From NCBI RefSeq assembly GCF_054482525.1, contig NZ_CM137006.1: a DNA stretch of 64,000 nt; one strand, given 5' to 3'. This document shows positions 18,325-64,000 of the stretch, in pieces. The notes below the pieces were generated by a model, which was not told the DNA's origin, searched no databases, and saw only the letters and a list, made by a program, of their open reading frames with translations. Numbering within the stretch: the first letter of the stretch is position 1; every line of letters begins with the position of its first letter. The position numbers and the translations under genes are program-made.

Positions 18325-21300
18325 TTACTTCATCGCCTCCTCGCCCTTTGCCGTATCGGCATCCACCGCGGTTATGGTCACCGTCACTGGCTTCATTTCG
18401 TACCCGCCATAGGTCAGGGCGTTAAATGTGAACGTATAGACACCAGGCTTGCTGGTACTAAATGTACGCGTGATTTTTCCGCTCACGAAATGGTCATTTT
18501 TCGACGGCAGGAATTGATAATCCTTCTCCGTCACTCCTTCCGGAGCCTCAATGTCGACCCACACATTCCCCCCAACAGGGTTATTTGCCGAGAACAGGGT
18601 AACCTCCAGCTTCGCAGTCGATTTCCCATCCGCCACCAGCGATTGCACATCAGATGATGCGGTGAGCTCCGCGTTTTTATCATCCGCGACGAATTTAGAT
18701 TCGGCAGTTTTCGTTGATACCTGACCGTTGGTCTGACTCACTTGCGCCTTGAGTGTGTATGTCGCCGCAACAGTAGTGGTAGCGGTGAAAATAGCCTGCC
18801 CTTGCTCATTCGTTGTCGCAGTGCCATTCGGTTCCAGGTTTAACGAAGCCGGGCTGGCAGTCAGCGTCACGTCGCTATCTTTCAACAGGTTGTTATTGGC
18901 ATCAGTCACCGTAACTTTATACGTCTGTTTGGCTTTGCCGTCCGCCAGTGCATAGTTGCCAATCATCTCAATACTGGAAACGGTTGCGGTAGCCTTATCG
19001 GCTACAAACGTTATAGTCTGCGCATCTGAAGGCTGGTCATTTCCTGCCGACGCCGTGATCTCATAGGTTCCGGCAGTCACGGAAACCACCTGCAACTCTG
19101 CTTTCCCCTCATCGTTGGCTTTCACCCAGACATTATCGCCAGTAAGCGGCTTGACACCCCGGGGCAGATTAAAGGTCACCAGTGTGCCTGGAACAGGGTT
19201 ACCGTTTTTATCCTCAACGGTCACCGTCAGCGTAAAGGCATCTTTGCCGTTTGCCACTTTTTGAACGGCGGTGTCTACCTGCAGGTTTGCCTGACCGGTG
19301 CTGGCATCCGCGTTGAATTTCACCGTGACCGTCTTCTGAGAGTTTTTCACCGCGGCCGCGATTTCAAGTTCCCCTGCAACGGTTGATATCAATTCAATAT
19401 CCGCTTTACCTGCCGCATTGGTTGTTACTGTATTCCCCGTCTTGCTAGTCACACCCTGCGGTAAAGTCAGCGTAACTTCTTGCCCCTGCAACGGGTTACC
19501 ATAGCTGTCCACGACGGTCAGGGTTACCTGGTTAGCAGACTGTCCATTTGCCAGTTGGTTATTCACCTTCACCGCCATATCACTGATCACTGCCCGGGAA
19601 GCGTCGCCTGCAACATTCAGCACCAGTGGCTGAGCAACGGCATTTTGGCCGTTCACTCGCGGCATCACAGACAACTGACCCGCGGCAGATCCCAGCGTTA
19701 AGGTCGCCACGTAGACCCCATTACCTTTCTCTGTCCAGTTTCCTGCTGAAGGACGCTCACTCCCCGTGCTGGCGGCACCGCTAAACACTGGTGCATCTGG
19801 CTTCAGCCCGGTGACCGAGTTCCCATACGCATCCTTCACGGTGAAGGTGAGTTCCGTCGTCGTTTTGACGGTCGGAGCCTTATTGTCCGCAACAAGCGTA
19901 GAGTTCGCTGATGACATCTCTCCGGCGATGACCGTCAACTGTGCGGCTTCGGTGGCTGCTGGCTGGCCGTTGAAGAGCGGCATGACGCGAAGCTCGCCCG
20001 TCTTTCCGCCTGTAGTCAACGTAGCAACATAGGAACCGTCACCTTTTTCGGTCCAACTGGAAACGGTCGCCCCTTCAGAGGCGGTCCCCGTCAAACTTGC
20101 CGACAACGAAAGACCACTGATAGCGTTGCCATGTGCATCTTTTGCAATAAGCGTCACGGTTGTGCTTTCGCCGGCTTTTACGTGATCTTCTGCGACAGAG
20201 ACTTTCGACTGGTTTGAAGATAACGCATCAGCCACCACGGTTACTTTTGCCGCATTTGCTGCCGCATCCTGTCCATTTAGCTTCGGCATAACTTCTAATT
20301 CACCCGCCGTAGAGCCGAGAGTAATCTGCGCAGTCCACGTCCCATCACCATTATTTGTCCAGCCCGATGCCGTAGAACCTACAGCAGCGGCACCCGCTAA
20401 TGACGGCGCTTCCGGCGTGAGGCTGGTCACAGGGTTGTCATAGGCATCTTTTACCGTCCAGATTGCCGTAACTGTACCCCCAACCACCGGTTTATCAGGA
20501 TTCAGGGTGATGGACGAATGTGCTGCATCAAGCGGCCCGGCAACAAACTTCAGCGTTTGTTGTAATGTGCCCAGTTGATACTGCTCGCTGAAGGCACGTA
20601 CAACAACGTTTCCGGCACGGGTCGAAGAAACCGTGGCGCTGTAAACCCCTGGTTTTATTTCCGAAATGGCACCAACGGTAACACCATTAGTGTCTTGCGG
20701 AACAAGTCGCAGGCGGATGGCTTCTCCCGTCACCGGATTACCCTCGGAGTCCACCGCAGTCAGCGTCAGCGTGTAGGCTTGCTGACCATCAGCAACCACG
20801 TCACCTGACGGCTCGTTAGCGCTCAGGGTGGAGTTTGCCACATCCATCATCGTGGCCCGCAGTTCTGCAGTGACGGTTTTGCTCATGCCATCAACGCTAA
20901 CAGTAATCGTTGCCTCACCTGACTGCGTTCCGGTAGTAAAGACAGACTGATACACCCCTGCTTCAGTTTCGGTGAACTCACCCAGTGTTGGCTTTGCCTG
21001 TGATTTAGTGGCCTTCAGGGTACGAGTCACAATATTTCCAGCCGGTTTGAAGGTTAGTTCAGTCTTGATCTGATCTTTCATGCCCGTGACTGGCTGGCCC
21101 TCGGCGTCGCGCAGAGACAGCACCAGCGGCTTTTGCTCATTACCGTTAGCAAGCATTTGAATACGGCTCTGACCGTCAAGCGTTAACGCCGTACGATCGG
21201 CGCTCATACCAGCTCCGCTAATAACCACTTCTGTCTGCACACGTTTCGAGGCATTGCCTTTGTTATCGTAGGCAATCGCTGAAATCGCATAATAATTGTC

Positions 21301-22578
21301 TTTGCCTGGACGATAAGCCGGGAGCGTTACTTGCCACTGACTACCCTGACCGGTAATTTTGCCACCTTCAGCCAGTAATGACGGCGCTTCCCACTGCACA
21401 TTTTTCAGTCCGTGAGTTGCTTTGCTGACCACAAGCCCCAGGGAAACCGTCTGACCGCCCTTACCTTCAATCCGCTCAGGCAGAGCAATACGGATCACTT
21501 CAGATTTGCGGTACTCAAGAACGATGTTGTTATTACGCTCAACCAGGTCATAGCGGCTGCCTGCCAGCATTCGACGCTCGCGAATGCTGTCTGTATCGAG
21601 TTGTTTTTGCAGAGGTTCGCCAATCCGATAATTAACTTCCAGGCCAAAGCGAGTGTCATTCTCACCACTCTTGCCCTGCTTATGCCCGGCACTCAGGGTC
21701 AGAAGAGGCACTGGCGTGTAATTCACTTCAGCGGTAATCGCATGTGGATCTTTCTGGCGTTTATCTTTGCCAAACAGCCCGACTTCATCGCCATAATACT
21801 GCTCATACATCAGGCTTGCGCCAAGCTGCGGCCAGGCGGGTAAATAGCCCTCAGCACGAATATCCCAGCCATTCGCCGGGCGTTCCTGATAATCCTCAAC
21901 ATCCGGCGATTTTTTCCAGCCAGAAGCCCGGATATAACCATTGGCGCTCAATTTCAAATAATCACGCCAGTATTCCGCACCAACACCAATGCGGGTATGA
22001 CTACGGGATAAATCATGGTCGATAAAGGTGTTCACCCCCGCCATCCAGTCATTTCCTGAAAAATGACGCCAGCCAAAACCAATATTTGACTGAGTACGAT
22101 CGTCGGTACGATGTATTGCTCCCTGAGTGAACAACATATTTGTCGGCGTATCATAAATAGGATAAAGCATTTCCAGCGAAGAATCCTTCAGCGAGAATTC
22201 TTTATCGACATTCAGTTTGACGCGCGCAGTACCATATTTCCCGAGCCACTCCTGTATTTCCTGGTTAGCTTTAGCTGTGGCCATTCCGGTAATAAAGTTA
22301 CGTGTCGCATCGCTATCTGGCTGACTGCTTAAAAATGTCCCGGCATTTGCGGCAAACGACGCGACATTTTTCTCCACATTATTATCAGCAGCTACCGTGG
22401 TATTTTCCATGCTCAACCGTGGCTGAACCGCATGCTGCGCGCGTGCCGCCATTACTGGGGTAAAGGTGACAGCGAGTGGAAAAAGAACCTGAACAGAGAT
22501 ATTTGCCCACGCCACGCAGCGGGCCAGAACTGAATAACGAAATCGTGGTTGTTTATGACCTGTTTTATAACGTGACAT
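18325..22578 (-). CDS. eaeH: Intimin/invasin-like inverse autotransporter adhesin EaeH (FdeC), full length
   Basis: 1417-aa ORF with N-terminal signal and beta-barrel region followed by many Big-like repeats; uninterrupted, unlike the IS3-disrupted K-12 allele. Confidence 0.9.
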   Translation of the reverse strand: MSRYKTGHKQPRFRYSVLARCVAWANISVQVLFPLAVTFTPVMAARAQHAVQPRLSMENTTVAADNNVEKNVASFAANAGTFLSSQPDSDATRNFITGMATAKANQEIQEWLGKYGTARVKLNVDKEFSLKDSSLEMLYPIYDTPTNMLFTQGAIHRTDDRTQSNIGFGWRHFSGNDWMAGVNTFIDHDLSRSHTRIGVGAEYWRDYLKLSANGYIRASGWKKSPDVEDYQERPANGWDIRAEGYLPAWPQLGASLMYEQYYGDEVGLFGKDKRQKDPHAITAEVNYTPVPLLTLSAGHKQGKSGENDTRFGLEVNYRIGEPLQKQLDTDSIRERRMLAGSRYDLVERNNNIVLEYRKSEVIRIALPERIEGKGGQTVSLGLVVSKATHGLKNVQWEAPSLLAEGGKITGQGSQWQVTLPAYRPGKDNYYAISAIAYDNKGNASKRVQTEVVISGAGMSADRTALTLDGQSRIQMLANGNEQKPLVLSLRDAEGQPVTGMKDQIKTELTFKPAGNIVTRTLKATKSQAKPTLGEFTETEAGVYQSVFTTGTQSGEATITVSVDGMSKTVTAELRATMMDVANSTLSANEPSGDVVADGQQAYTLTLTAVDSEGNPVTGEAIRLRLVPQDTNGVTVGAISEIKPGVYSATVSSTRAGNVVVRAFSEQYQLGTLQQTLKFVAGPLDAAHSSITLNPDKPVVGGTVTAIWTVKDAYDNPVTSLTPEAPSLAGAAAVGSTASGWTNNGDGTWTAQITLGSTAGELEVMPKLNGQDAAANAAKVTVVADALSSNQSKVSVAEDHVKAGESTTVTLIAKDAHGNAISGLSLSASLTGTASEGATVSSWTEKGDGSYVATLTTGGKTGELRVMPLFNGQPAATEAAQLTVIAGEMSSANSTLVADNKAPTVKTTTELTFTVKDAYGNSVTGLKPDAPVFSGAASTGSERPSAGNWTEKGNGVYVATLTLGSAAGQLSVMPRVNGQNAVAQPLVLNVAGDASRAVISDMAVKVNNQLANGQSANQVTLTVVDSYGNPLQGQEVTLTLPQGVTSKTGNTVTTNAAGKADIELISTVAGELEIAAAVKNSQKTVTVKFNADASTGQANLQVDTAVQKVANGKDAFTLTVTVEDKNGNPVPGTLVTFNLPRGVKPLTGDNVWVKANDEGKAELQVVSVTAGTYEITASAGNDQPSDAQTITFVADKATATVSSIEMIGNYALADGKAKQTYKVTVTDANNNLLKDSDVTLTASPASLNLEPNGTATTNEQGQAIFTATTTVAATYTLKAQVSQTNGQVSTKTAESKFVADDKNAELTASSDVQSLVADGKSTAKLEVTLFSANNPVGGNVWVDIEAPEGVTEKDYQFLPSKNDHFVSGKITRTFSTSKPGVYTFTFNALTYGGYEMKPVTVTITAVDADTAKGEEAMK

Positions 22579-49316: not shown

Positions 49317-49590
49317 ATGATGAAAACTGATCATTATCGTTGTTTTTGTTGCAATAGTAGAATACGCGTATTTATTCCTCCATCTCTATTAATAACGGCA
49401 ATAAACTGTTCACTTCACTGATATTTAAAATATGTATCCTTTTCAAGCTGTTCAGCGGCGTAAGAAAAAGCATTAATTATGAATTCGACGATTTAACCAT
49501 TTCAGTCTGATTGGTAATCATCTGTGATTAATGCTGGTCTATTGATTACGCCAGCATTAACCGCTTAGGGATGTATTCTTCCTGTTCATA
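49317..49590 (+). repeat. Degenerate second copy of the ykgR-(ykgM-ykgO) locus: frameshifted ykgR paralog fused to the 3' end of an rpmJ2-like gene plus its terminator
   Basis: 49327-49441 matches 30040-30150 (ykgR 3' part and downstream) and 49441-49590 matches 30824-30966 (ykgO 3' end and terminator), about 85-90 percent identity by eye, same orientation. Confidence 0.7.
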
Positions 49591-49793
49591 TAGCCCTCGA
49601 AAAAGAGAGAAAATAAAACTGTGTCCAATATTAATTTACCACTCCAGACCGAAGCATCGGTGGGATTAGCAGGACGACTGGTACAGAAGGATGGTATAGC
49701 GTCATTTGTCGGGCATTCCATTGCCATAATAATGACAATTTTGAATCAATAGACATGCTTCTTGATCATGTCTTAAAAATTAGACCATGAGCC

Positions 49794-50024
49794 TTACGAA
49801 GCATCATTTTTACTGACTGGTATTAACTTTGCTATCATATAAACTCTATTCTTAAAAAACGCGCCCAGAATTTTATATGATTTTCCTTGTTTTGCTGCCT
49901 GTAAAGAAATTTCTTTTTCAGTGCTGTCGATGGTTGAACCGACGGCAGTAATCGTTTTGGCGACGCTACTGAAGGATATTAAAGACAGTGTAACCACAAC
50001 AATTAAAGAATAGATAATATTCAT
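49794..50024 (-). CDS. Small periplasmic DUF1471 (YhcN/BhsA-family) protein
   Basis: Signal peptide MNIIYSLIVVVTLSLISFSSVA and C-terminal ...GKSYKILGAFFKNRVYMIAKLI pattern. Confidence 0.5.
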   Translation of the reverse strand: MNIIYSLIVVVTLSLISFSSVAKTITAVGSTIDSTEKEISLQAAKQGKSYKILGAFFKNRVYMIAKLIPVSKNDAS

Positions 50025-50239
50025 GCTAATTCTCCTGACAATTGAGAGGATGAGTTTTATATACAAAGGCATTAAATATGAGTCATGTTTACTCCCTGTG
50101 AAAATAATCTTACTGTAATTAAACCTTCATCTCCTTCGGAGTGAGCAATGCATAATATAATGCATCTTGCTATTCAAAACAGTGGATATAAATTTTCCTT
50201 CCGACCTATTTAATAAAACGTGAATATAAAAGTTATTCT

Positions 50240-50791
50240 TCAGTTTGCAGATGCAGTAGGTCTGATGGTAATTTCGGTTGTATCAACGCTTTCGGGAGAT
50301 TCAATAATATGCCTTACAGCACGGGCAATATCCGCGGGTTGAAGTGCAACAGAACGGTAGGCGTCTATTGACTTCATGGTTTCCACATGGGTAATGGTTG
50401 AAGCCAGTTCACTTTCTACAACCCCAGGATTTACGCAGGTCACACGGATTTTCGAGCTTTCCTGCCGTAAGCCATCCGAAATAGCCCGTACTGCAAATTT
50501 TGACGCGCAATAGACTGCGCCTGTGGGCACAACAGAAAGGGCACCAATAGAACCAAGATTGATTATCTGACCGGAACCCTGTGCTTCCATCACCGGAAGT
50601 ACAGCGCCAATTCCCCAAAGTACACCTTTGATATTCACGTCAATAGTGAGTTCCCATTCATCTTGTTTTCCTGCTGCAAGCGGTGAAAGCGGCATAACGC
50701 CCGCATTATTGATAAGAACATCAACTCGCCCCCAGCTATCCAGCGCTGCTTGCACGAAATCTGCCATGGACTGTCGGTCTGTGACATCCAA
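50240..50791 (-). pseudogene. 5'-truncated short-chain dehydrogenase/reductase gene
   Basis: Contains NNAG, the catalytic Ser and YxxxK but lacks the N-terminal TGxxxGxG Rossmann segment (about 60 aa missing); frame abuts the integrase fragment. Confidence 0.6.
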
Positions 50792-50794
50792 CTT

Positions 50795-50962
50795 GCATTT
50801 TCAGAAATGGGAGGCTGGGAGTCTATCGAAATGGTTCGTCGATATGCTCACCTCGCGCCTAATCACCTTACCGAACACGCACGGCAAATAGACTCAGTCC
50901 TGAACCCATCGGTCCCAAATTTGTCCCAGTCAAAAAAAAAGGAAGGTACTAATTATGTGTAA
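50795..50962 (+). pseudogene. 3' fragment of a tyrosine recombinase (phage/P4-type integrase) gene
   Basis: Encodes ...[24 protein letters not shown], the integrase C-terminal motif carrying the catalytic Tyr; no upstream integrase body. Confidence 0.6.
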
Positions 50963-51174: not shown

Positions 51175-51539
51175 AGCCGTGATCGGCTAAGAACAATATT
51201 ACTTACCTCCCTGTAAGAACACCGGCTCATCAGCCCGCACGCTTTCCTGGCTTGAAGAATGTCTGTCGCAGTCAAATATGGTGCTTGTACCTGAGAGGTA
51301 AATCCATTGCGATCAATACGAACTAACTCATATTTCTCTACCAGAAAGTTAACGGCATTAGCCAGAGTGATACCGGCATCGATATGCTCCTTTATAACGG
51401 TTTCATCGCTAAAAGGTGTGTCGCTTAGCATTAGGCCATAGTGCTGCTCAAGCAGACGAGTAAGTAACATTTGCCAGATTGCAACGGGCGACAGACAGGG
51501 CTTCGCCGCCCGCGAAATTGTAGCAGGTAGATTTTTCAT
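51171..51539 (-). CDS. CbtA/YeeV/YkfI-family toxin (cytoskeleton-targeting type IV TA toxin)
   Basis: [36 protein letters not shown]... is collinear with CbtA; ATGA overlap with the antitoxin stop. Confidence 0.85.
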
Positions 51540-51877
51540 GTTTGCTCTCGTGAAATTTGTTTGCGCTGAGGGGGATAAATGGCGATGTATACGTAGCCGC
51601 AACTACCAAGGGTATCGGCTTCGCAGGTGAAACCGTTGTGGTACAGGGTGACACAGTGGGCATGGCGGGGATTCATTTCACCAGTGGTCAGCATCGATTC
51701 CATCTGACTGATAAAATGTGGAAATACGACATCCAACTTCAGGCTTTCGGCATCACTAAACTTACCGGTGATACTTGCCCGGTCAGCCAGATAGTGCAGC
51801 CGGTTGCCCTCCTGCACCAGACGTGCTCCCAGGCACGGCGTGATATCCCGCTGCAGGCCCCATGTGGGGTTGCTCAT
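51536..51877 (-). CDS. CbeA/YeeU/YfjZ-family antitoxin
   Basis: ...[20 protein letters not shown]...[10 protein letters not shown] matches the YeeU family. Confidence 0.85.
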
Positions 51878-51894
51878 TTATAACCTCTTTATTG

Positions 51895-52116
51895 TCAGTT
51901 CAGGGTAATACTCACCAGACAGGTATAAGGTCCGTTGCGATCCTGGCGGCGTTCGACGTATACCGCCAGCACACTGGAAATGTCAGGAACCACCTTAACG
52001 GTGTATTGACAGACACTGCCATGCCACTGGTATCTGCCAGTGCAGAATCGAACAATGCGGGAGGCCGGATGCTGACGGTAAATCGTCATCGCCAGGCGTT
52101 TACTGATAATTTTCAT
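51895..52116 (-). CDS. DUF987 protein (YeeT/YkfH family)
   Basis: MKIISKRLAMTIYRQHPASRIVRFCTGRYQWHGSVC... Confidence 0.75.
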   Translation of the reverse strand: MKIISKRLAMTIYRQHPASRIVRFCTGRYQWHGSVCQYTVKVVPDISSVLAVYVERRQDRNGPYTCLVSITLN

Positions 52117-52124
52117 GTAATACC

Positions 52125-52604
52125 TCAAAGCAGACCATGTTCAGCGAACGACAATATCTGCGTACCACCGACGATAAGGTGGTCGAGCACCCGGATCTCC
52201 ACCAGCATCAGTGCATGTAACAGTCGTTGAGTGATAGCCTTGTCGGCCTGGCTTGGAGTCACTTCTCCGGACGGGTGGTTATGGGCAAATATCACCGCCG
52301 CCGCATTAAAGTACAGCGCGCGTTTCACCACCTCGCGAGGATGAACCTCAGTGTGACTGATGGTGCCGGTAAAGAGCGTTTCGTGGGCAAGCAGCTGGTT
52401 CTGGTTATTGAGGTACAACACGACAAACACTTCGCGCTCAAGGGGGCCCATTTTCAGCCTGAGCCAGTCGCGGGCAGCCTGAGTCGAGGTGAATGCCACA
52501 CCCGGTTCTAGCAAGTGCTGGTCAAGCAGAACCAAGGCTCGCTTAATGGTACGCAGTGCTGGTAACGGCAGTTCAGGTGTAAACATAGTCAGTTGTTTCG
52601 CCAT
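52125..52604 (-). CDS. RadC-like JAB-domain protein (YeeS/YkfG/YfjY family)
   Basis: HNHPSGEVTPSQAD JAMM-like motif. Confidence 0.85.
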   Translation of the reverse strand: MAKQLTMFTPELPLPALRTIKRALVLLDQHLLEPGVAFTSTQAARDWLRLKMGPLEREVFVVLYLNNQNQLLAHETLFTGTISHTEVHPREVVKRALYFNAAAVIFAHNHPSGEVTPSQADKAITQRLLHALMLVEIRVLDHLIVGGTQILSFAEHGLL

Positions 52605-52978
52605 AGCAAATATCCTTAATTAAAGGTGGTGAGAATGACACTGGATTCGGCACGACAGGCGTGATGGTCGTATTCGAGTAGGAAGATGGTAATATGATTG
52701 CGGAATGCATGAGGAAACGAAGCCAGCAATGACCCAGTGACTCACACCCAATCACAGTGTTAAAAATAAAAAAATCCCGCAATCCAGCGAGGATTGCATT
52801 GGGATAATATCTATCTGTAATTATTTAGAAAAAATGTTTTTTTTCTGAGGTCTATTATAAATTTTTTTCGTTCAGAAACTTCTCGGATATGATCATCTGC
52901 TGAGTACCAAGAACGGACATTGTACCCAATAGTGAGTTAATCATTGGAACGTTGATCACCCCAATTGAAAATTTTCAC

Positions 52979-53006
52979 AATATCCAATATCCAATATCCA
53001 ATATAT
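52979..53006. repeat. Tandem 7-bp repeat CAATATC x about 4
   Basis: CACAATATCCAATATCCAATATCCAATATATC, about 27 bp left of the IS end. Confidence 0.7.
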
Positions 53007-53032
53007 CGGTGTAGAGGGCTTCTCTCTTAAAC

Positions 53033-54230
53033 TGATCCTACCCGCGTAATGTGGACACGCTCCTAAGCGAGATTCTGGTTTTCAAACTGTTTCGGGCTGA
53101 GGCCGCCATAATCGCTGTGACGCCGCCAGCGATTGTAATCGCACTTAATCCGCCGTCCGCATGATTTCCCGGCTGATAAAGCGTTCTCCGTGGATACACT
53201 CGACTTTTAACGAGTGTAAGAAGCTTTCCGCACAGGCATTATCATAACAGCAACCTTTTGCGCTCATGCTGCCATGCAGATTATGTCGTTTCAGCAGAGC
53301 CTGATAATCCGCTGAGCAGTACTGCCCGCCACGGTCGGTGTGAATTCGCCGCCACAGCGCCATCTGCAGTGCATCACAGGCAAGTTCTGCCGTTATTTGC
53401 GAGGACACCAACTAGCCAATAATAGCACGCGACCACCAGTCTATAACCACGGCAAAGTATAACAAGCTTTCATCGATGCGAAGGTACGTGATGTCACCAG
53501 CCCACTTCTGGTCCGAGCCACTAGATCTGAAGTCCTGCTTCAGCAGATTCTCCGGCACTGGCTGGTCGTGAGCACAGTAGATTAACGGGCTGAACAGACG
53601 TGAGGTTTTTGCCCGCAGGCCCTGACGACGCGAACTGTTGCTATCGTTTTGATGTTGTATTCCGGCGGCTCGTCTGCAAGACGAGCCGCACCATAACGCT
53701 GTTTTGCCTCAACGAATACCTTACAGACAGCTTCATTGAAGACGCACCGGAACTGTTGCCGATGGCTCAGTTGGGGACGACGCAGACACCAGGTATACCA
53801 GCAGCTGTGCGCCACGCACAGCACCCGACACATAGCTTTGATACTGAACTCAACCTGATATTTTTCGATAAAGATATACTTCATTTCAGGCGCTACGCGA
53901 AGTATGTCGCGCCCTTTTGGAGAATAGCCAACTCATTATCCCGCTCAGCCAGTTGACGTTTGAGGCAGGCAATCTCCGCTGCTTGTGCGCTCTCTCTCAG
54001 AGGATATTGTCTGGTGCAGTTGTTTGTAGAGCTGGGAATCGTAAAGGCTGAGTTCACGGGCGGTAGTGGCCACACCGAGACGTTCGGCCAACTTAAGGGC
54101 TTCTTCACGAAATTCAGGCGTGTGTTGTTTGCGTGACTTTTGTTGATTGATGCTGATTTTGTCATGTGAGCTACCTCTGATTGAGAGTTTACTCGCTTAG
54201 TCCCGTGTCCACTATTGGTGGGTAGGATCA
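53033..54230 (-). mobile_element. Degraded IS3-family insertion sequence (IS3-like) with frameshifted orfA/orfB
   Basis: Terminal inverted repeats TGATCCTACCCGCGTAATGTGGAC (left) and TGATCCTACCCACCAATAGTGGAC (right, reverse complement); minus-strand ORF fragments match IS3 InsE (…[23 protein letters not shown]) and InsF (MKYIFIEK..., ...[14 protein letters not shown]...CCYDNA...), split by frameshifts; no target-site duplication. Confidence 0.8.
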
Positions 54231-54579
54231 TTATTGATCAAAGATCAAGATGTGCAAAAATTCCCAAGTAAAGCCTTATCTGAACCTTCCGTTTTGTTAG
54301 CACATCTGACATTATTATTCAGTCAAATCCCTTCAGTTGATTGAGTTCAAAGGCGGTAGCTATGCTGATTTGCATTACTGTAAAACTTTTAAAGCAGAGG
54401 TTTATATAGAATTGCTCTGTTGAATAAATTAGTAGGTTCACATGGATTTTGAGTTCACCAAGCATGACAACTTGCGTTCTTCAAGCGATCCTGAGAAGCC
54501 TATTATATTAGTGTACAAGATGCCTCACGTGGCACCACTGAATTTTACATTAGACTCTATCCATTAAAACGATAAAATT

Positions 54580-56313
54580 ATGTACATAGCAAAAATTAAA
54601 TTTACAAATTTCAAATCATTCAAAGAGATGTCTTTTGAGTGCAATGATAAATTCAACATAATTGTTGGTGAAAATAATATTGGTAAAAGCACATTATTTG
54701 AGGGGGTAAGTTTATGGAAATATGCTTATGACAACCTTATTCAAGAAAAAAACAAAAACAAATTCTACAAAGCTTCAACTAACTACTACATTACCTATTC
54801 TACACTCGATCAAATAAGACTTGTTGACGATATTGATATTTTTAACGACCCAAAGAATAGCTCCGCATCAATATGCATTACAATTAAAGATGAACAAAAT
54901 GAATTTGATTTAGAGATTAGATTTGAAAAGCCAGGGATTAAAAATTCATACTTACGGATATTTAATAGCAATGGTTCTGATAATGACACACAGTTTTCAA
55001 ACTTTGAACGATTCTCAAACTATATAAAAGAAAAGGATTGCACTCTAAAAGATGCCATTTACATTTACCAAACAAGACCAATATCAACTATTTTTAGAGA
55101 TGAGCCATTTTACAATAATGCGCAGATAGAGAAAAAAATAAATATTGGAAAGTCACATGATGTCTTAAGGAATAAAATATTAAAAACCGAAAATACTCAA
55201 GCCACAAGGGTTGCACAAAAATTTGAAAATCTTGAGATTCGCCTACAAAAAGTCCTTGGTGAAAACTATATCTTAAAATTTAAGAATAGAAATCGAATCG
55301 ATGATGAGTATGTTAAAATAACTGCAACAAAGGAAAACGGGAAAGAATTGGAAATATCACTTATGGGTAGTGGTTTTTTGCAAGTCTTAGAGATATTTTC
55401 AACAATTGAGTATATGGAAAAGAATTCAACCGGTATTAACCTCATTCTTATCGATGAGCCTGATTCACATATCCACTCAAATTTACAAGCAAATTTAATT
55501 GACGAACTAAAGCAACAAACAGCATGTCAAATTTTTGTCATAACACATAATGACAGACTAACATCAAAAGCTAATGAAGGTGAGCTTTTTTATCTAAATC
55601 AGATAGTTAAGGATCTTGGTTTATTGTCTCACCTTGAAATATCTGATTATTCAAAAGTTAAAGATGGTCTAGCTAATGTACTAACAGCTATAAATGATGG
55701 AGATGAAACACCCATTGTTATAACTGAAGGAAAAACGGACCAGAAAATTTTAACAACTGCTTGGGAAAAGCTAAACCCAGGAACTCCTATGCCTTTTAAA
55801 ATAATTTCATCCGGCATTCAAATTGAAGAGGAAAAAAGAACTGGGTGCGCAGAGGCAGTTAGAAGATCTTTAGAATACATTTCAACATTAACTGATAGAA
55901 CAATTATCGGTTTATTTGATAATGATCGGGAGGGAAATGAGCAGTTCAAAGGATTAAATCGTTCTATTTTTGAACCTCATGACCTGCAAAATAACTCCCG
56001 AAAACATCAGATAAAAAATATCTATGGGCTTATTCTTCCCGTTCCTGTGCATAGAGAACGTTTTGTACAAAACAATTCTTTAACGCAGCGTTACTTCGTA
56101 ATTGAACAATATTTCCAAGATGAAATATTACTACAGCATAACATGAAAGGTGAGTCAATATTAGGTACTGAGGTATTTTTTGTTAATGACTCAAGAAAGA
56201 ATGAGTTTTCAGAGTCAACCAATGACCTTCCGGTAGAATGCTTTGGGGATTTTAGTATTTTATTCGATAAAATTTCCGATTTATTGGCTAACAATAGACC
56301 AGAAAACACTTGA
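54580..56313 (+). CDS. OLD-family protein: N-terminal ABC-type ATPase fused to a C-terminal TOPRIM nuclease-like domain (P2 Old / Gabija GajA / PARIS-like); candidate anti-phage defense protein
   Basis: 577 aa; Walker A GENNIGKST (aa 30-38), Walker B LILIDEPD (aa 288-295), H-loop ITHND; TOPRIM-like ITEGKTD (E383) and FDNDREG (D447, D449); strongly AT-rich codon usage. Confidence 0.7.
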   Translation: MYIAKIKFTNFKSFKEMSFECNDKFNIIVGENNIGKSTLFEGVSLWKYAYDNLIQEKNKNKFYKASTNYYITYSTLDQIRLVDDIDIFNDPKNSSASICITIKDEQNEFDLEIRFEKPGIKNSYLRIFNSNGSDNDTQFSNFERFSNYIKEKDCTLKDAIYIYQTRPISTIFRDEPFYNNAQIEKKINIGKSHDVLRNKILKTENTQATRVAQKFENLEIRLQKVLGENYILKFKNRNRIDDEYVKITATKENGKELEISLMGSGFLQVLEIFSTIEYMEKNSTGINLILIDEPDSHIHSNLQANLIDELKQQTACQIFVITHNDRLTSKANEGELFYLNQIVKDLGLLSHLEISDYSKVKDGLANVLTAINDGDETPIVITEGKTDQKILTTAWEKLNPGTPMPFKIISSGIQIEEEKRTGCAEAVRRSLEYISTLTDRTIIGLFDNDREGNEQFKGLNRSIFEPHDLQNNSRKHQIKNIYGLILPVPVHRERFVQNNSLTQRYFVIEQYFQDEILLQHNMKGESILGTEVFFVNDSRKNEFSESTNDLPVECFGDFSILFDKISDLLANNRPENT

Positions 56314-57088
56314 TACTGTACTGCATTTTCCATATCGAGCTAAAACGGACCATTCGCTTTTAAAGTGATTACGGCATACGGGACAGATTTTCCTTAAAGC
56401 AAACGTCTCCTTCACGCCCTGAGACATTCGACATTAAGTAAGAACGGGGGTGCGCCTCGAGTGCCAGCAAATATTTTGCTTCGTCGTAGCGGGTTCTGGT
56501 CATCCAGCAGCTGTAAATGATCCTTATCCATTTATACGCCAGAGCCCAAATGGCTGATTGATGCGATTTTCCTTTTCTTCGCAGCTCTTACTAATAAAGT
56601 CTGGCCCAGAATGATGAGTTAATCGTCTTTGCAGCCCATTCCACGAATGTCTGTCGGACGAGCTCCGCACATTGCCAACATCAGTGTACCCAAGATTTCT
56701 GGCCGCTTTGTTCTGTCACCGGAAAAATACCTGCGTAGTTTTGAATTTCTTCAGCGCAGTTTAACTGGTCACGGTTACTTGAAGAAAGAAACTGACCACT
56801 GCGCTCGTCGTTCGGAAGTGCCAGGGCTATCGGTGGATATTAAGGGAAACCTGACAGCCGGAGGTAATCAGGGTTATTAATGCCGTCAGTGTGGGCCCCG
56901 CTACCAGTGAAACACTAATGTATTGATTAAGTTTCATATTCTTCCTTAATGAAAATAAGCATGTTTTCTTTTGCTAAATCAGTCGTCGTTGGCGATGAAA
57001 CCGGCTCACACATCACGCGATTGTTAAATGAAAAAGCCCCTATTGCGTGAGCAACAGGGGCTATATTTATTTTGTGTCTATAGAGGCA

Positions 57089-57499
57089 TCAGTAACCAGT
57101 TTTAACCTTGTACATCAATAGTGTTTTACTGCCCCGGACAATTTTCACATACAGGGCATTATCTTTCGTGCCTCGCACAAAACCGGCCTGCACATCGCCC
57201 TTACAGTCACCACCGTCGTAAGGAATATTGACACCTGTCTGACGCACCAGATCAATAACCCCGAAGCTTAAGTCCTCACAGGCCGGGCCCGGCAGGTCCT
57301 GAATCAGGGCAAATTTATGGTCGTCGCTGACACCGGTCAGTGAGCACATGGAGGTATTGATGTCGTTTCCCTGGCACCAGTACTCCTGACCGGGATTATC
57401 TTTATCCATCAGACTTGCCGGAAGCTGAGCGGCACCGGCACTGAAGGCGGCAAGTGACAGAATGAGGGCGGGTACAGCAGAGGTCATTATTTTCAGCAT
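57089..57499 (-). CDS. Secreted 4-Cys protein of unknown function (island-associated)
   Basis: Signal peptide MLKIMTSAVPALILSLAAFSAGAA; motif W-C-x9-C...C...C. Confidence 0.6.
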   Translation of the reverse strand: MLKIMTSAVPALILSLAAFSAGAAQLPASLMDKDNPGQEYWCQGNDINTSMCSLTGVSDDHKFALIQDLPGPACEDLSFGVIDLVRQTGVNIPYDGGDCKGDVQAGFVRGTKDNALYVKIVRGSKTLLMYKVKTGY

Positions 57500-57565
57500 G
57501 GTTTTCTTCCTGAATTAATCCAGCCCGCTGTCGGGCAAAATGAGGGAGGTTGGTATCGGGTATTA

Positions 57566-63996: not shown

Positions 63997-64000
63997 ACCC

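Follow-up and report, generated by a model that had tools for sequence, protein, structure and literature searches.

Within a 64-kb stretch of DNA (here, the window), an IS3-like element with recognizable ends and a broken transposase lies between radC and a gene for an OLD-like nuclease. This raises the question as to whether the element is able to move, how old it is, and whether it had a part in rearranging the genes around it. An earlier note, made from the sequence alone, described it as an old, immobile copy without a target-site duplication that had possibly mediated a deletion or cargo exchange. The evidence presented here makes it very probable that the element is a non-functional relic of a distinct IS3-group lineage that was dead and fixed at its site before it spread between genera; a rearrangement at one of its ends is the most likely origin of the missing duplication.

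An element with IS3-type ends and unequal flanks

The whole relic spans 53033-54230, with its transposase genes on the minus strand, and measures 1198 bp, that is, 1244 + 2 - 48 relative to ISEc16. Its left inverted repeat (IRL, beginning TGATCCTACCCACCAATAGTGGACAC) occupies 54192-54230 on the minus strand, and its right inverted repeat (IRR, beginning TGATCCTACCCGCGTAATGTGGACAC) occupies 53033-53071 on the plus strand. Among the first 26 bases, IRL differs at one from the IRL of ISEc16, and IRR differs at one from the IRR of ISEc16 and IS3. A repeat search recovered the two arms as a single long inverted pair of 39 nt, imperfect and 79% complementary, and the asymmetry between IRL and IRR is that of IS3 and ISEc16. 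When we searched the window for TGATCCTACCC-N7-GTGGACAC with up to two mismatches, the two ends of the relic were the only matches, against a chance expectation of zero (100 shuffles). The termini read TGATCC...GGATCA, and both these 5'-TG...CA-3' ends and the length of the element are those of the IS3 family. The inverted repeats that had been proposed to bound about 1.2 kb were thus confirmed, with the 24-mers quoted for them lying exactly at the two ends.

The flanks agree with the earlier reading as well. The triplet adjoining IRR is AAC (53030-53032), that adjoining IRL is TTA (54231-54233), and the two do not match; both junctions are the same in a second copy of the relic, on contig L030, described below. 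We found no direct repeat of 3 bp or 4 bp at the flanks, so the target duplication that characterizes the IS3 family is missing here.

Damage to the transposase genes

Members of the IS3 family carry two consecutive, partly overlapping genes, orfA and then orfB in the -1 frame, and an A-rich slippery motif gives rise to the fused OrfAB product. In the relic, an orfA remnant (HTH_Tnp_1-like) extends over 53881-54165 on the minus strand, with its ATG at 54165, and an orfB remnant (rve/DDE transposase) extends over 53063-53884 on the same strand. The overlap of the orfA stop and the orfB start (ATGA) is still recognizable, and both reading frames are interrupted. The frameshift window CCAAAAGG, with its A_AAG slippery motif, is conserved and retained at 53912-53919 (minus strand), with two substitutions just 3' of it. 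The A_AAG frameshift motif of IS3 and a pseudoknot sequence have been described (PMC4066793).

Alignment of the relic with four intact relatives, the comparison by which we scored all lesions, revealed six relic-specific deletions (1, 12, 2, 1, 21, and 11 bp) and no insertions. Four of the deletions shift the frame and two are in-frame. Three fall in orfA (1 bp near 54140, an in-frame 12 bp near 54026, and 2 bp near 53997) and three in orfB (1 bp near 53640, an in-frame 21 bp near 53345, directly ahead of the catalytic HTDRG motif, and 11 bp near 53150). In addition, TAG replaces a conserved Lys codon in the orfA remnant (53895-53893) and a conserved Trp codon in the orfB remnant (53414-53412). 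The catalytic codons are kept in orfB (D at 53495, D at 53336, and E at 53228).

Homology to OrfA and OrfB is spread over all three reading frames, in accordance with the proposal that the two genes are broken into at least three. With its reading frame scattered over all three frames and broken by six deletions and two TAG codons, the relic is unable to produce a transposase; it encodes neither OrfA nor OrfB nor a fused OrfAB. The observations that would have spoken for a working element, an intact frameshifted orfAB and a 3-bp direct repeat, were both absent from the relic.

Relationship to known IS3-group elements

To place the relic, we compared its repaired protein products and its DNA with those of known elements. 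With the NCBIfam model for IS3 transposases (transpos_IS3; cut-off, 160), the repaired OrfB scored 241 bits; it also matched Pfam rve (72 bits), rve_2, and rve_3, so that the DDE domain is recognizable, and the repaired OrfA scored 21 bits against HTH_Tnp_1, slightly below the cut-off of 24. In global alignments, DNA identity was highest with ISEc16 (79.8%) and the Dickeya parazeae Ech586 copy (79.2%), followed by an ENA metagenome copy (77.1%), IS3 (76.2%), and a multi-copy IS from Escherichia sp. MOD1-EC7003 (75.9%). These intact elements share 81-84% with one another, and because the relic reaches only 76-80%, it represents a copy neither of IS3 nor of ISEc16. By the ISfinder convention, copies of the same IS share above ~90% DNA or 95% protein identity, and the relic lies outside this range for both elements. 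Thus, the kinship with IS3 that had been proposed stands at the level of the family, given the profile score and the ends, and falls for the view that this is a decayed copy of IS3 itself.

Searches for a closer relative or an intact parent element were negative. There was no such DNA relative above ~80% identity in 5426 complete E. coli genomes (megablast and blastn) or in 72,556 plasmids, and the repaired OrfB had no intact match above 76% identity among 5.8 billion protein clusters, where the best intact proteins reached 75-76% amino acid identity and ISEc16 OrfB reached 73%. The top protein match (P0001) proved to be an internally duplicated variant of ISEc16, not a relevant relative. IS3-group-related sequence was present in 4851 of the 5426 E. 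coli genomes, and in a sensitive search of these genomes the next-best matches to the relic were ISEc16 copies at ~77% BLAST identity. A 24-mer spanning the 21-bp deletion junction had no match in species-representative genomes, and we found no further IS3-like sequence within the window itself.

ISEc16 (1244 bp; reference copy from E. coli 536) shares the layout of the relic, IRL-orfA-A_AAG-orfB(rve/DDE)-IRR; its terminal 26 bp are near-identical to those of the relic, and it is the best DNA match across the E. coli genomes and plasmids. It differs in being multi-copy and intact, with an annotated programmed frameshift, whereas the relic lacks any intact open reading frame and is shorter by 46 bp. 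IS3 (1258 bp; InsE/InsF; copies IS3A to IS3E in K-12) resembles the relic in family, group, ends, frameshift window, and downstream sequence, but its K-12 copies are intact, and its DNA is more distant. The copies in D. parazeae Ech586, Yersinia aldovae, and the ENA contig encode the proteins closest to the repaired OrfB and have several local motifs in common with the relic; unlike the relic, these copies have an intact orfB, and their DNA is still no more than 77-79% identical. Taken together, these comparisons indicate that the relic belongs to an IS3-group lineage of its own, unnamed and apart from those of IS3 and ISEc16. It is an ordinary, extinct-looking lineage of a well-known kind, and its pseudogene status is already recorded, since RefSeq labels the same stretch an IS3-family pseudogene.

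One further element deserves mention for its ends. In species-representative genomes, a 31-mer from IRL matched nothing but a multi-copy 1258-bp IS of Escherichia sp. MOD1-EC7003 located at contig ends (L023 to L027). The first 58 bp of this IS are 98% identical to the IRL end of the relic, and its interior and overall identity is ~76%, which suggests that end sequences may be shared or exchanged among IS3-group lineages.

Decay of the relic sequence

To examine how the relic has diverged, we counted private substitutions, defined as sites where the intact relatives (four were used) agree and one sequence differs. The relic carries 84 (in ~1190 bp, ~7%) versus 20-42 in each intact relative. 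Within coding sequence, those of the relic are distributed uniformly over the three codon positions (31:23:26; p=0.54), whereas those of the intact relatives, pooled, show a third-position bias (28:24:69; p=2e-7), and the two distributions differ in a contingency test (p=0.003). The non-coding ends (~100 bp) contain 4 private substitutions, not significantly fewer than expected from the interior; the two rates are similar, and the ends thus bear no mark of selection. The substitutions of the relic show a pattern consistent with neutral decay. At the usual enterobacterial rates, ~7% neutral divergence would correspond, as an order of magnitude only, to between one million and ten million years.

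The earlier description of an old, immobile copy therefore holds, on grounds other than those first given for it. The age of the relic follows from its eight coding lesions, from the even spread of its substitutions over codon positions, and from lesions shared with an orthologous copy in another genus; the original argument, from the absent duplication, is weak, as the controls below illustrate.

The island and its variable slot

In E. coli SCU-102, with which the window is collinear apart from a few differences, the island that carries the relic starts at a tRNA-Thr gene downstream of proA, with a tyrosine recombinase, and ends after the cbtA toxin gene. This tRNA-Thr site is presumably the place where CP4-6 is inserted in K-12. 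Related islands share a backbone in the order DeoR, DUF4339, two hypothetical genes, and then radC, DUF987, yeeU, and cbtA. What varies among them is the slot between the second hypothetical gene (57089-57499, 136 aa) and radC, which contains a DUF905 gene and an antirestriction gene in NN5 and a hypothetical gene and a YiiX-like hydrolase in NCTC9064. In the window, the slot holds an IS110-family relic, the OLD-like gene, a spacer of 349 bp, the IS3-family relic, and a 109-bp piece of a recurrent island motif. Relative to NCTC9064, backbone homology ends at 52923 and resumes at 56775; relative to NN5, it resumes at 57088. The island arms are mosaic: over 52124-57499, NN5 is 91.5% identical in one arm and 77% in the radC arm, and NCTC9064 is 74% and 83% identical, respectively.

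The OLD-like gene (54580-56313, plus strand) encodes a 577-aa ABC-ATPase/nuclease annotated as 'ATP-dependent nuclease' and has a GC content of ~30%. In PADLOC, the protein comes closest to NsnB, GajA, and AriAB, the fused protein of PARIS, in each case well under the family level, and no Pfam model matched its C-terminal 200 aa. Outside its own E. coli cluster, which consists of identical or near-identical copies, its closest homologs are a metagenome protein at 86% identity and then proteins of Aeromonas and marine bacteria at ~65%. The nearest DNA homolog (L021, 82% nucleotide identity) shares 54550-56283 only and has no adjoining IS sequence. We consider the gene a candidate single-gene phage-defense cargo.

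The OLD-like gene is bracketed by the two IS relics. The IS110-family relic (56402-56777, minus strand) is an internal fragment of a transposase gene, 79% identical to ISEsa2 and interrupted by frameshifts and stops, and it terminates exactly where the NCTC9064 backbone homology resumes. A similar arrangement, with an IS110 fragment beside an IS3-like element, occurs on contig L013; we set this candidate aside, as its IS110 part shows no homology to that of the window.

On the other side, the 109 bp between the radC-side backbone and the IS3-family relic (52924-53032) are part of a motif that recurs in many islands and plasmids of E. coli. They contain a 7-bp tandem repeat (CAATATC x3.5) at 52978-53004; the L030 copy of this repeat has two units fewer. 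The ~100-bp motif beside the relic (52896-53032) has homologs of 75-85% identity in ~690 E. coli genomes and some plasmids, where it is usually unannotated. On plasmid CP099148.1, it lies upstream of a 42-aa open reading frame, 164 bp from a genuine IS3 and in the same orientation. We took this proximity to be coincidence or a shared island motif, because the IS3 concerned is a different element.

We found no Rfam families in 52000-57500, and a scan for promoters and terminators gave counts at the chance level, with a single convincing site, a minus-strand terminator at 52798-52770 in the backbone. This intrinsic-terminator-like hairpin, GCAATCC...GGATTGC with a T run after it, is located in conserved sequence between the slot and radC; it argues against read-through from the relic into radC and would insulate radC-yeeU-cbtA from cargo transcription.

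Other parts of the island are also of note. At its far end, a C-terminal integrase fragment (50750-50962, plus strand) meets an SDR oxidoreductase gene that has lost its N-terminal part (50240-50791, minus strand), and the SCU-102 annotation places a partial second ykgR copy near 50240-50962. Metagenome contig L029 has 6.2 kb in place of the 1.2 kb of the window at 49555-50791, so this junction is polymorphic. Toward the integrase, the part of the island past position 64000 of the window (SCU-102 869914-880500) encodes a SLATT-domain protein, a nucleoid-associated protein, a GTP pyrophosphokinase, and a pair of DprA and RecQ-family helicase proteins, and it resembles defense cargo.

Copies in E. 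coli and in a Klebsiella-like host

In a megablast search, the full relic was present in only one of 5426 complete E. coli genomes, that of SCU-102, where it is 99.9% identical, occupies the same place, and is annotated in RefSeq as 'IS3 family transposase; frameshifted; internal stop'. All 24 of the contigs read that encode an identical OLD-like protein show the same neighborhood. A metagenome scan with the 25-mer adjoining IRR returned three contigs, each with the relic, and two of these are essentially identical to the window. The independent assemblies of SCU-102, L005, L006, and L028 contain the same lesions at 99.9% identity or more, and most of these lesions are also found in L030.

The L030 copy (OKVQ01000002.1, 1-9358), from a 450-kb contig, matches window positions 51290-57061. 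Its block of radC, relic, OLD-like gene, and IS110 relic is ~1% diverged from that of the window, and its relic, at 1215 bp, has junctions identical to those of the window copy. The two relics have in common five of the six deletions and the Trp-to-TAG change; the 11-bp deletion and the Lys-to-TAG change occur only in the window, and a 6-bp insertion occurs only in L030. The host of L030 is not E. coli. Its flanking dnaG-rpoD-mug-tRNA-Ile sequence is only ~84% identical to that of E. coli, its Mug protein shares 94-95% identity with the Mug proteins of Klebsiella huaxiensis and K. michiganensis, and we take the host to be Klebsiella-like (Klebsiella oxytoca-complex-like) on this sequence evidence. 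There the block adjoins tRNA-Ile and mug, whereas the E. coli island sits at tRNA-Thr. The cbtA/yeeU part is ~10% diverged between L030 and the window, which places a recombination breakpoint near 52125.

The shared lesions and the identical junctions indicate that the relic had died and become fixed in place before the two lineages of the island block separated. Between genera it has traveled only as a passenger of this block, and decay has continued separately in the two lineages. Comparison of the insertion site with other strains, as had been proposed, gave one fixed junction in every copy found.

The missing duplication in intact relatives

As controls for the missing duplication, we examined the flanks of intact relatives. 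Among the K-12 copies, IS3B (ATC/ATC) and IS3E (GTC/GTC) have perfect duplications and IS3C has a partial one (ATC/ACC, 2/3), and each of these three interrupts a single gene, annotated as two fragments. No duplication flanks IS3A, which lies between the truncated genes eaeH and ykgA, or IS3D, which adjoins the ymdE pseudogene. No target repeat was found at ISEc16 in strain 536, the CP099148 IS3, the Dickeya copy, or the ENA copy, all of them intact. A perfect duplication thus occurs in 2/5 K-12 IS3 copies and in 2/9 of all the intact relatives examined, and because it is so often absent (7/9), its absence alone does not date an element. In the K-12 IS3 copies, absence goes together with rearranged surroundings, and adjacent deletion, recombination between IS copies, and degeneration have been given as causes of absent duplications (PMC11708052). 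IS3A and IS3D resemble the relic in being duplication-less IS3-group elements at the edge of a region with truncated or missing neighbors, but they are intact and recent, whereas the relic is long dead and shared between genera. The eaeH gene (fdeC) that IS3A interrupts in K-12 is intact in the window, as the earlier note had observed, with a 1417-aa open reading frame at 18325-22578 on the minus strand.

Alternative explanations and a proposed history

One alternative is a simple insertion with a normal 3-bp duplication that point mutations have since erased. The age of the relic, with its ~7% private substitutions, would suit this reading, and degeneration is among the recognized causes of absence (PMC11708052), but none of the three positions match, for which our own estimate of the chance is ~0.13 cubed, or ~0.002, at ~7% change per site per copy, and the orthologous copies, ~1% apart, have identical flanks; we regard erasure as very improbable. 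Mobilization of a non-autonomous relic in trans, by the transposase of IS3 or ISEc16, seems just as improbable. Each end departs from ISEc16 at a single position in its first 26 bp and potential helpers are widespread in E. coli, yet the relic occupies one junction only, in E. coli and in the Klebsiella-like host alike, and the substitutions at its ends (4 in ~100 bp) are no rarer than those in the interior, the ends being slow-evolving throughout the group. As for an active IS3 whose apparent breaks reflect programmed frameshifting or sequencing errors, the retained A_AAG slippery window is what can be said for it. It is refuted by the four frameshifting and two in-frame deletions and the two TAG codons, which recur in SCU-102, L005, L006, and L028 and for the most part in L030, and we assign it practically no probability.

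The relic and the OLD-like gene might also have arrived together from a foreign donor as one IS-bounded unit resembling a composite transposon. The position of the gene between two IS relics, its low GC content, and its homologs outside E. coli would all suit such an arrival. However, the same IS or compatible ends are not found on both sides of the gene: the relics belong to different families, IS3 (DDE) and IS110 (DEDD), which cannot pair. Moreover, the IS3-family relic has ~51% GC and enterobacterial relatives against ~30% GC for the gene, and the L021 homolog shares the gene segment alone, without an adjoining IS. Joint arrival is therefore unlikely, if less so than the alternatives above.

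Our preferred reading remains that of a relic rearranged at one end and dead before its spread. While active, the element would have transposed by the copy-out/paste-in route of its family, and its target would have been the variable segment next to radC, on its upstream side, in a tRNA-associated island resembling CP4-6. The target duplication was most likely lost afterwards, when one end was rearranged, perhaps by an adjacent deletion or by recombination with another copy, presumably while the element or a partner copy was active. This rearrangement may have been part of a swap in which the segment with DUF905 and antirestriction genes gave way to the low-GC OLD-like nuclease gene. Since then, the element would have moved only passively within the island, decaying to the scar seen today.

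A search of E. coli genomes in near and distant modes for an empty site gave no contiguous match of the joined flanks. No intermediate was found either, whether an island that has the OLD-like gene and lacks the relic or one with an intact copy at the site, and all three metagenome contigs with the left flank carry the relic. With neither an empty site nor an intermediate, we infer the order of events and the causal role of the element. That the relic is set back 110 bp into the variable segment, and does not sit exactly at the radC-side breakpoint, counts against the rearrangement, and the IS110-family relic at the other edge of the slot could equally have been involved. Of the deletion or cargo exchange suggested by the earlier note, exchange in the slot gains support from the contents of NN5 and NCTC9064, and this element as its cause is plausible.

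Implications

The relic matters little in itself, as decayed insertion sequences are common in genomic islands. The K-12 control nevertheless cautions against automated readings of a missing duplication, which is often absent even from intact IS3. The copies in the window and in L030 form an ordered series of lesions and document a dead IS carried between genera while eroding. The IS3 and IS110 relics also mark the edges of a slot in which an antirestriction module appears to have been replaced by a foreign OLD-like nuclease gene. Extending this, we tentatively raise the possibility, which we think less likely than its converse, that the interval from 57089-57499 to radC is a recurrent cargo-exchange slot in which IS activity swapped anti-defense genes (DUF905 and antirestriction) for an OLD/AriAB-like nuclease, and that the block then passed between Escherichia, where it sits at thrW, and a Klebsiella-like host, where it sits at tRNA-Ile. 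If so, the relic would be a datable marker of the exchange.
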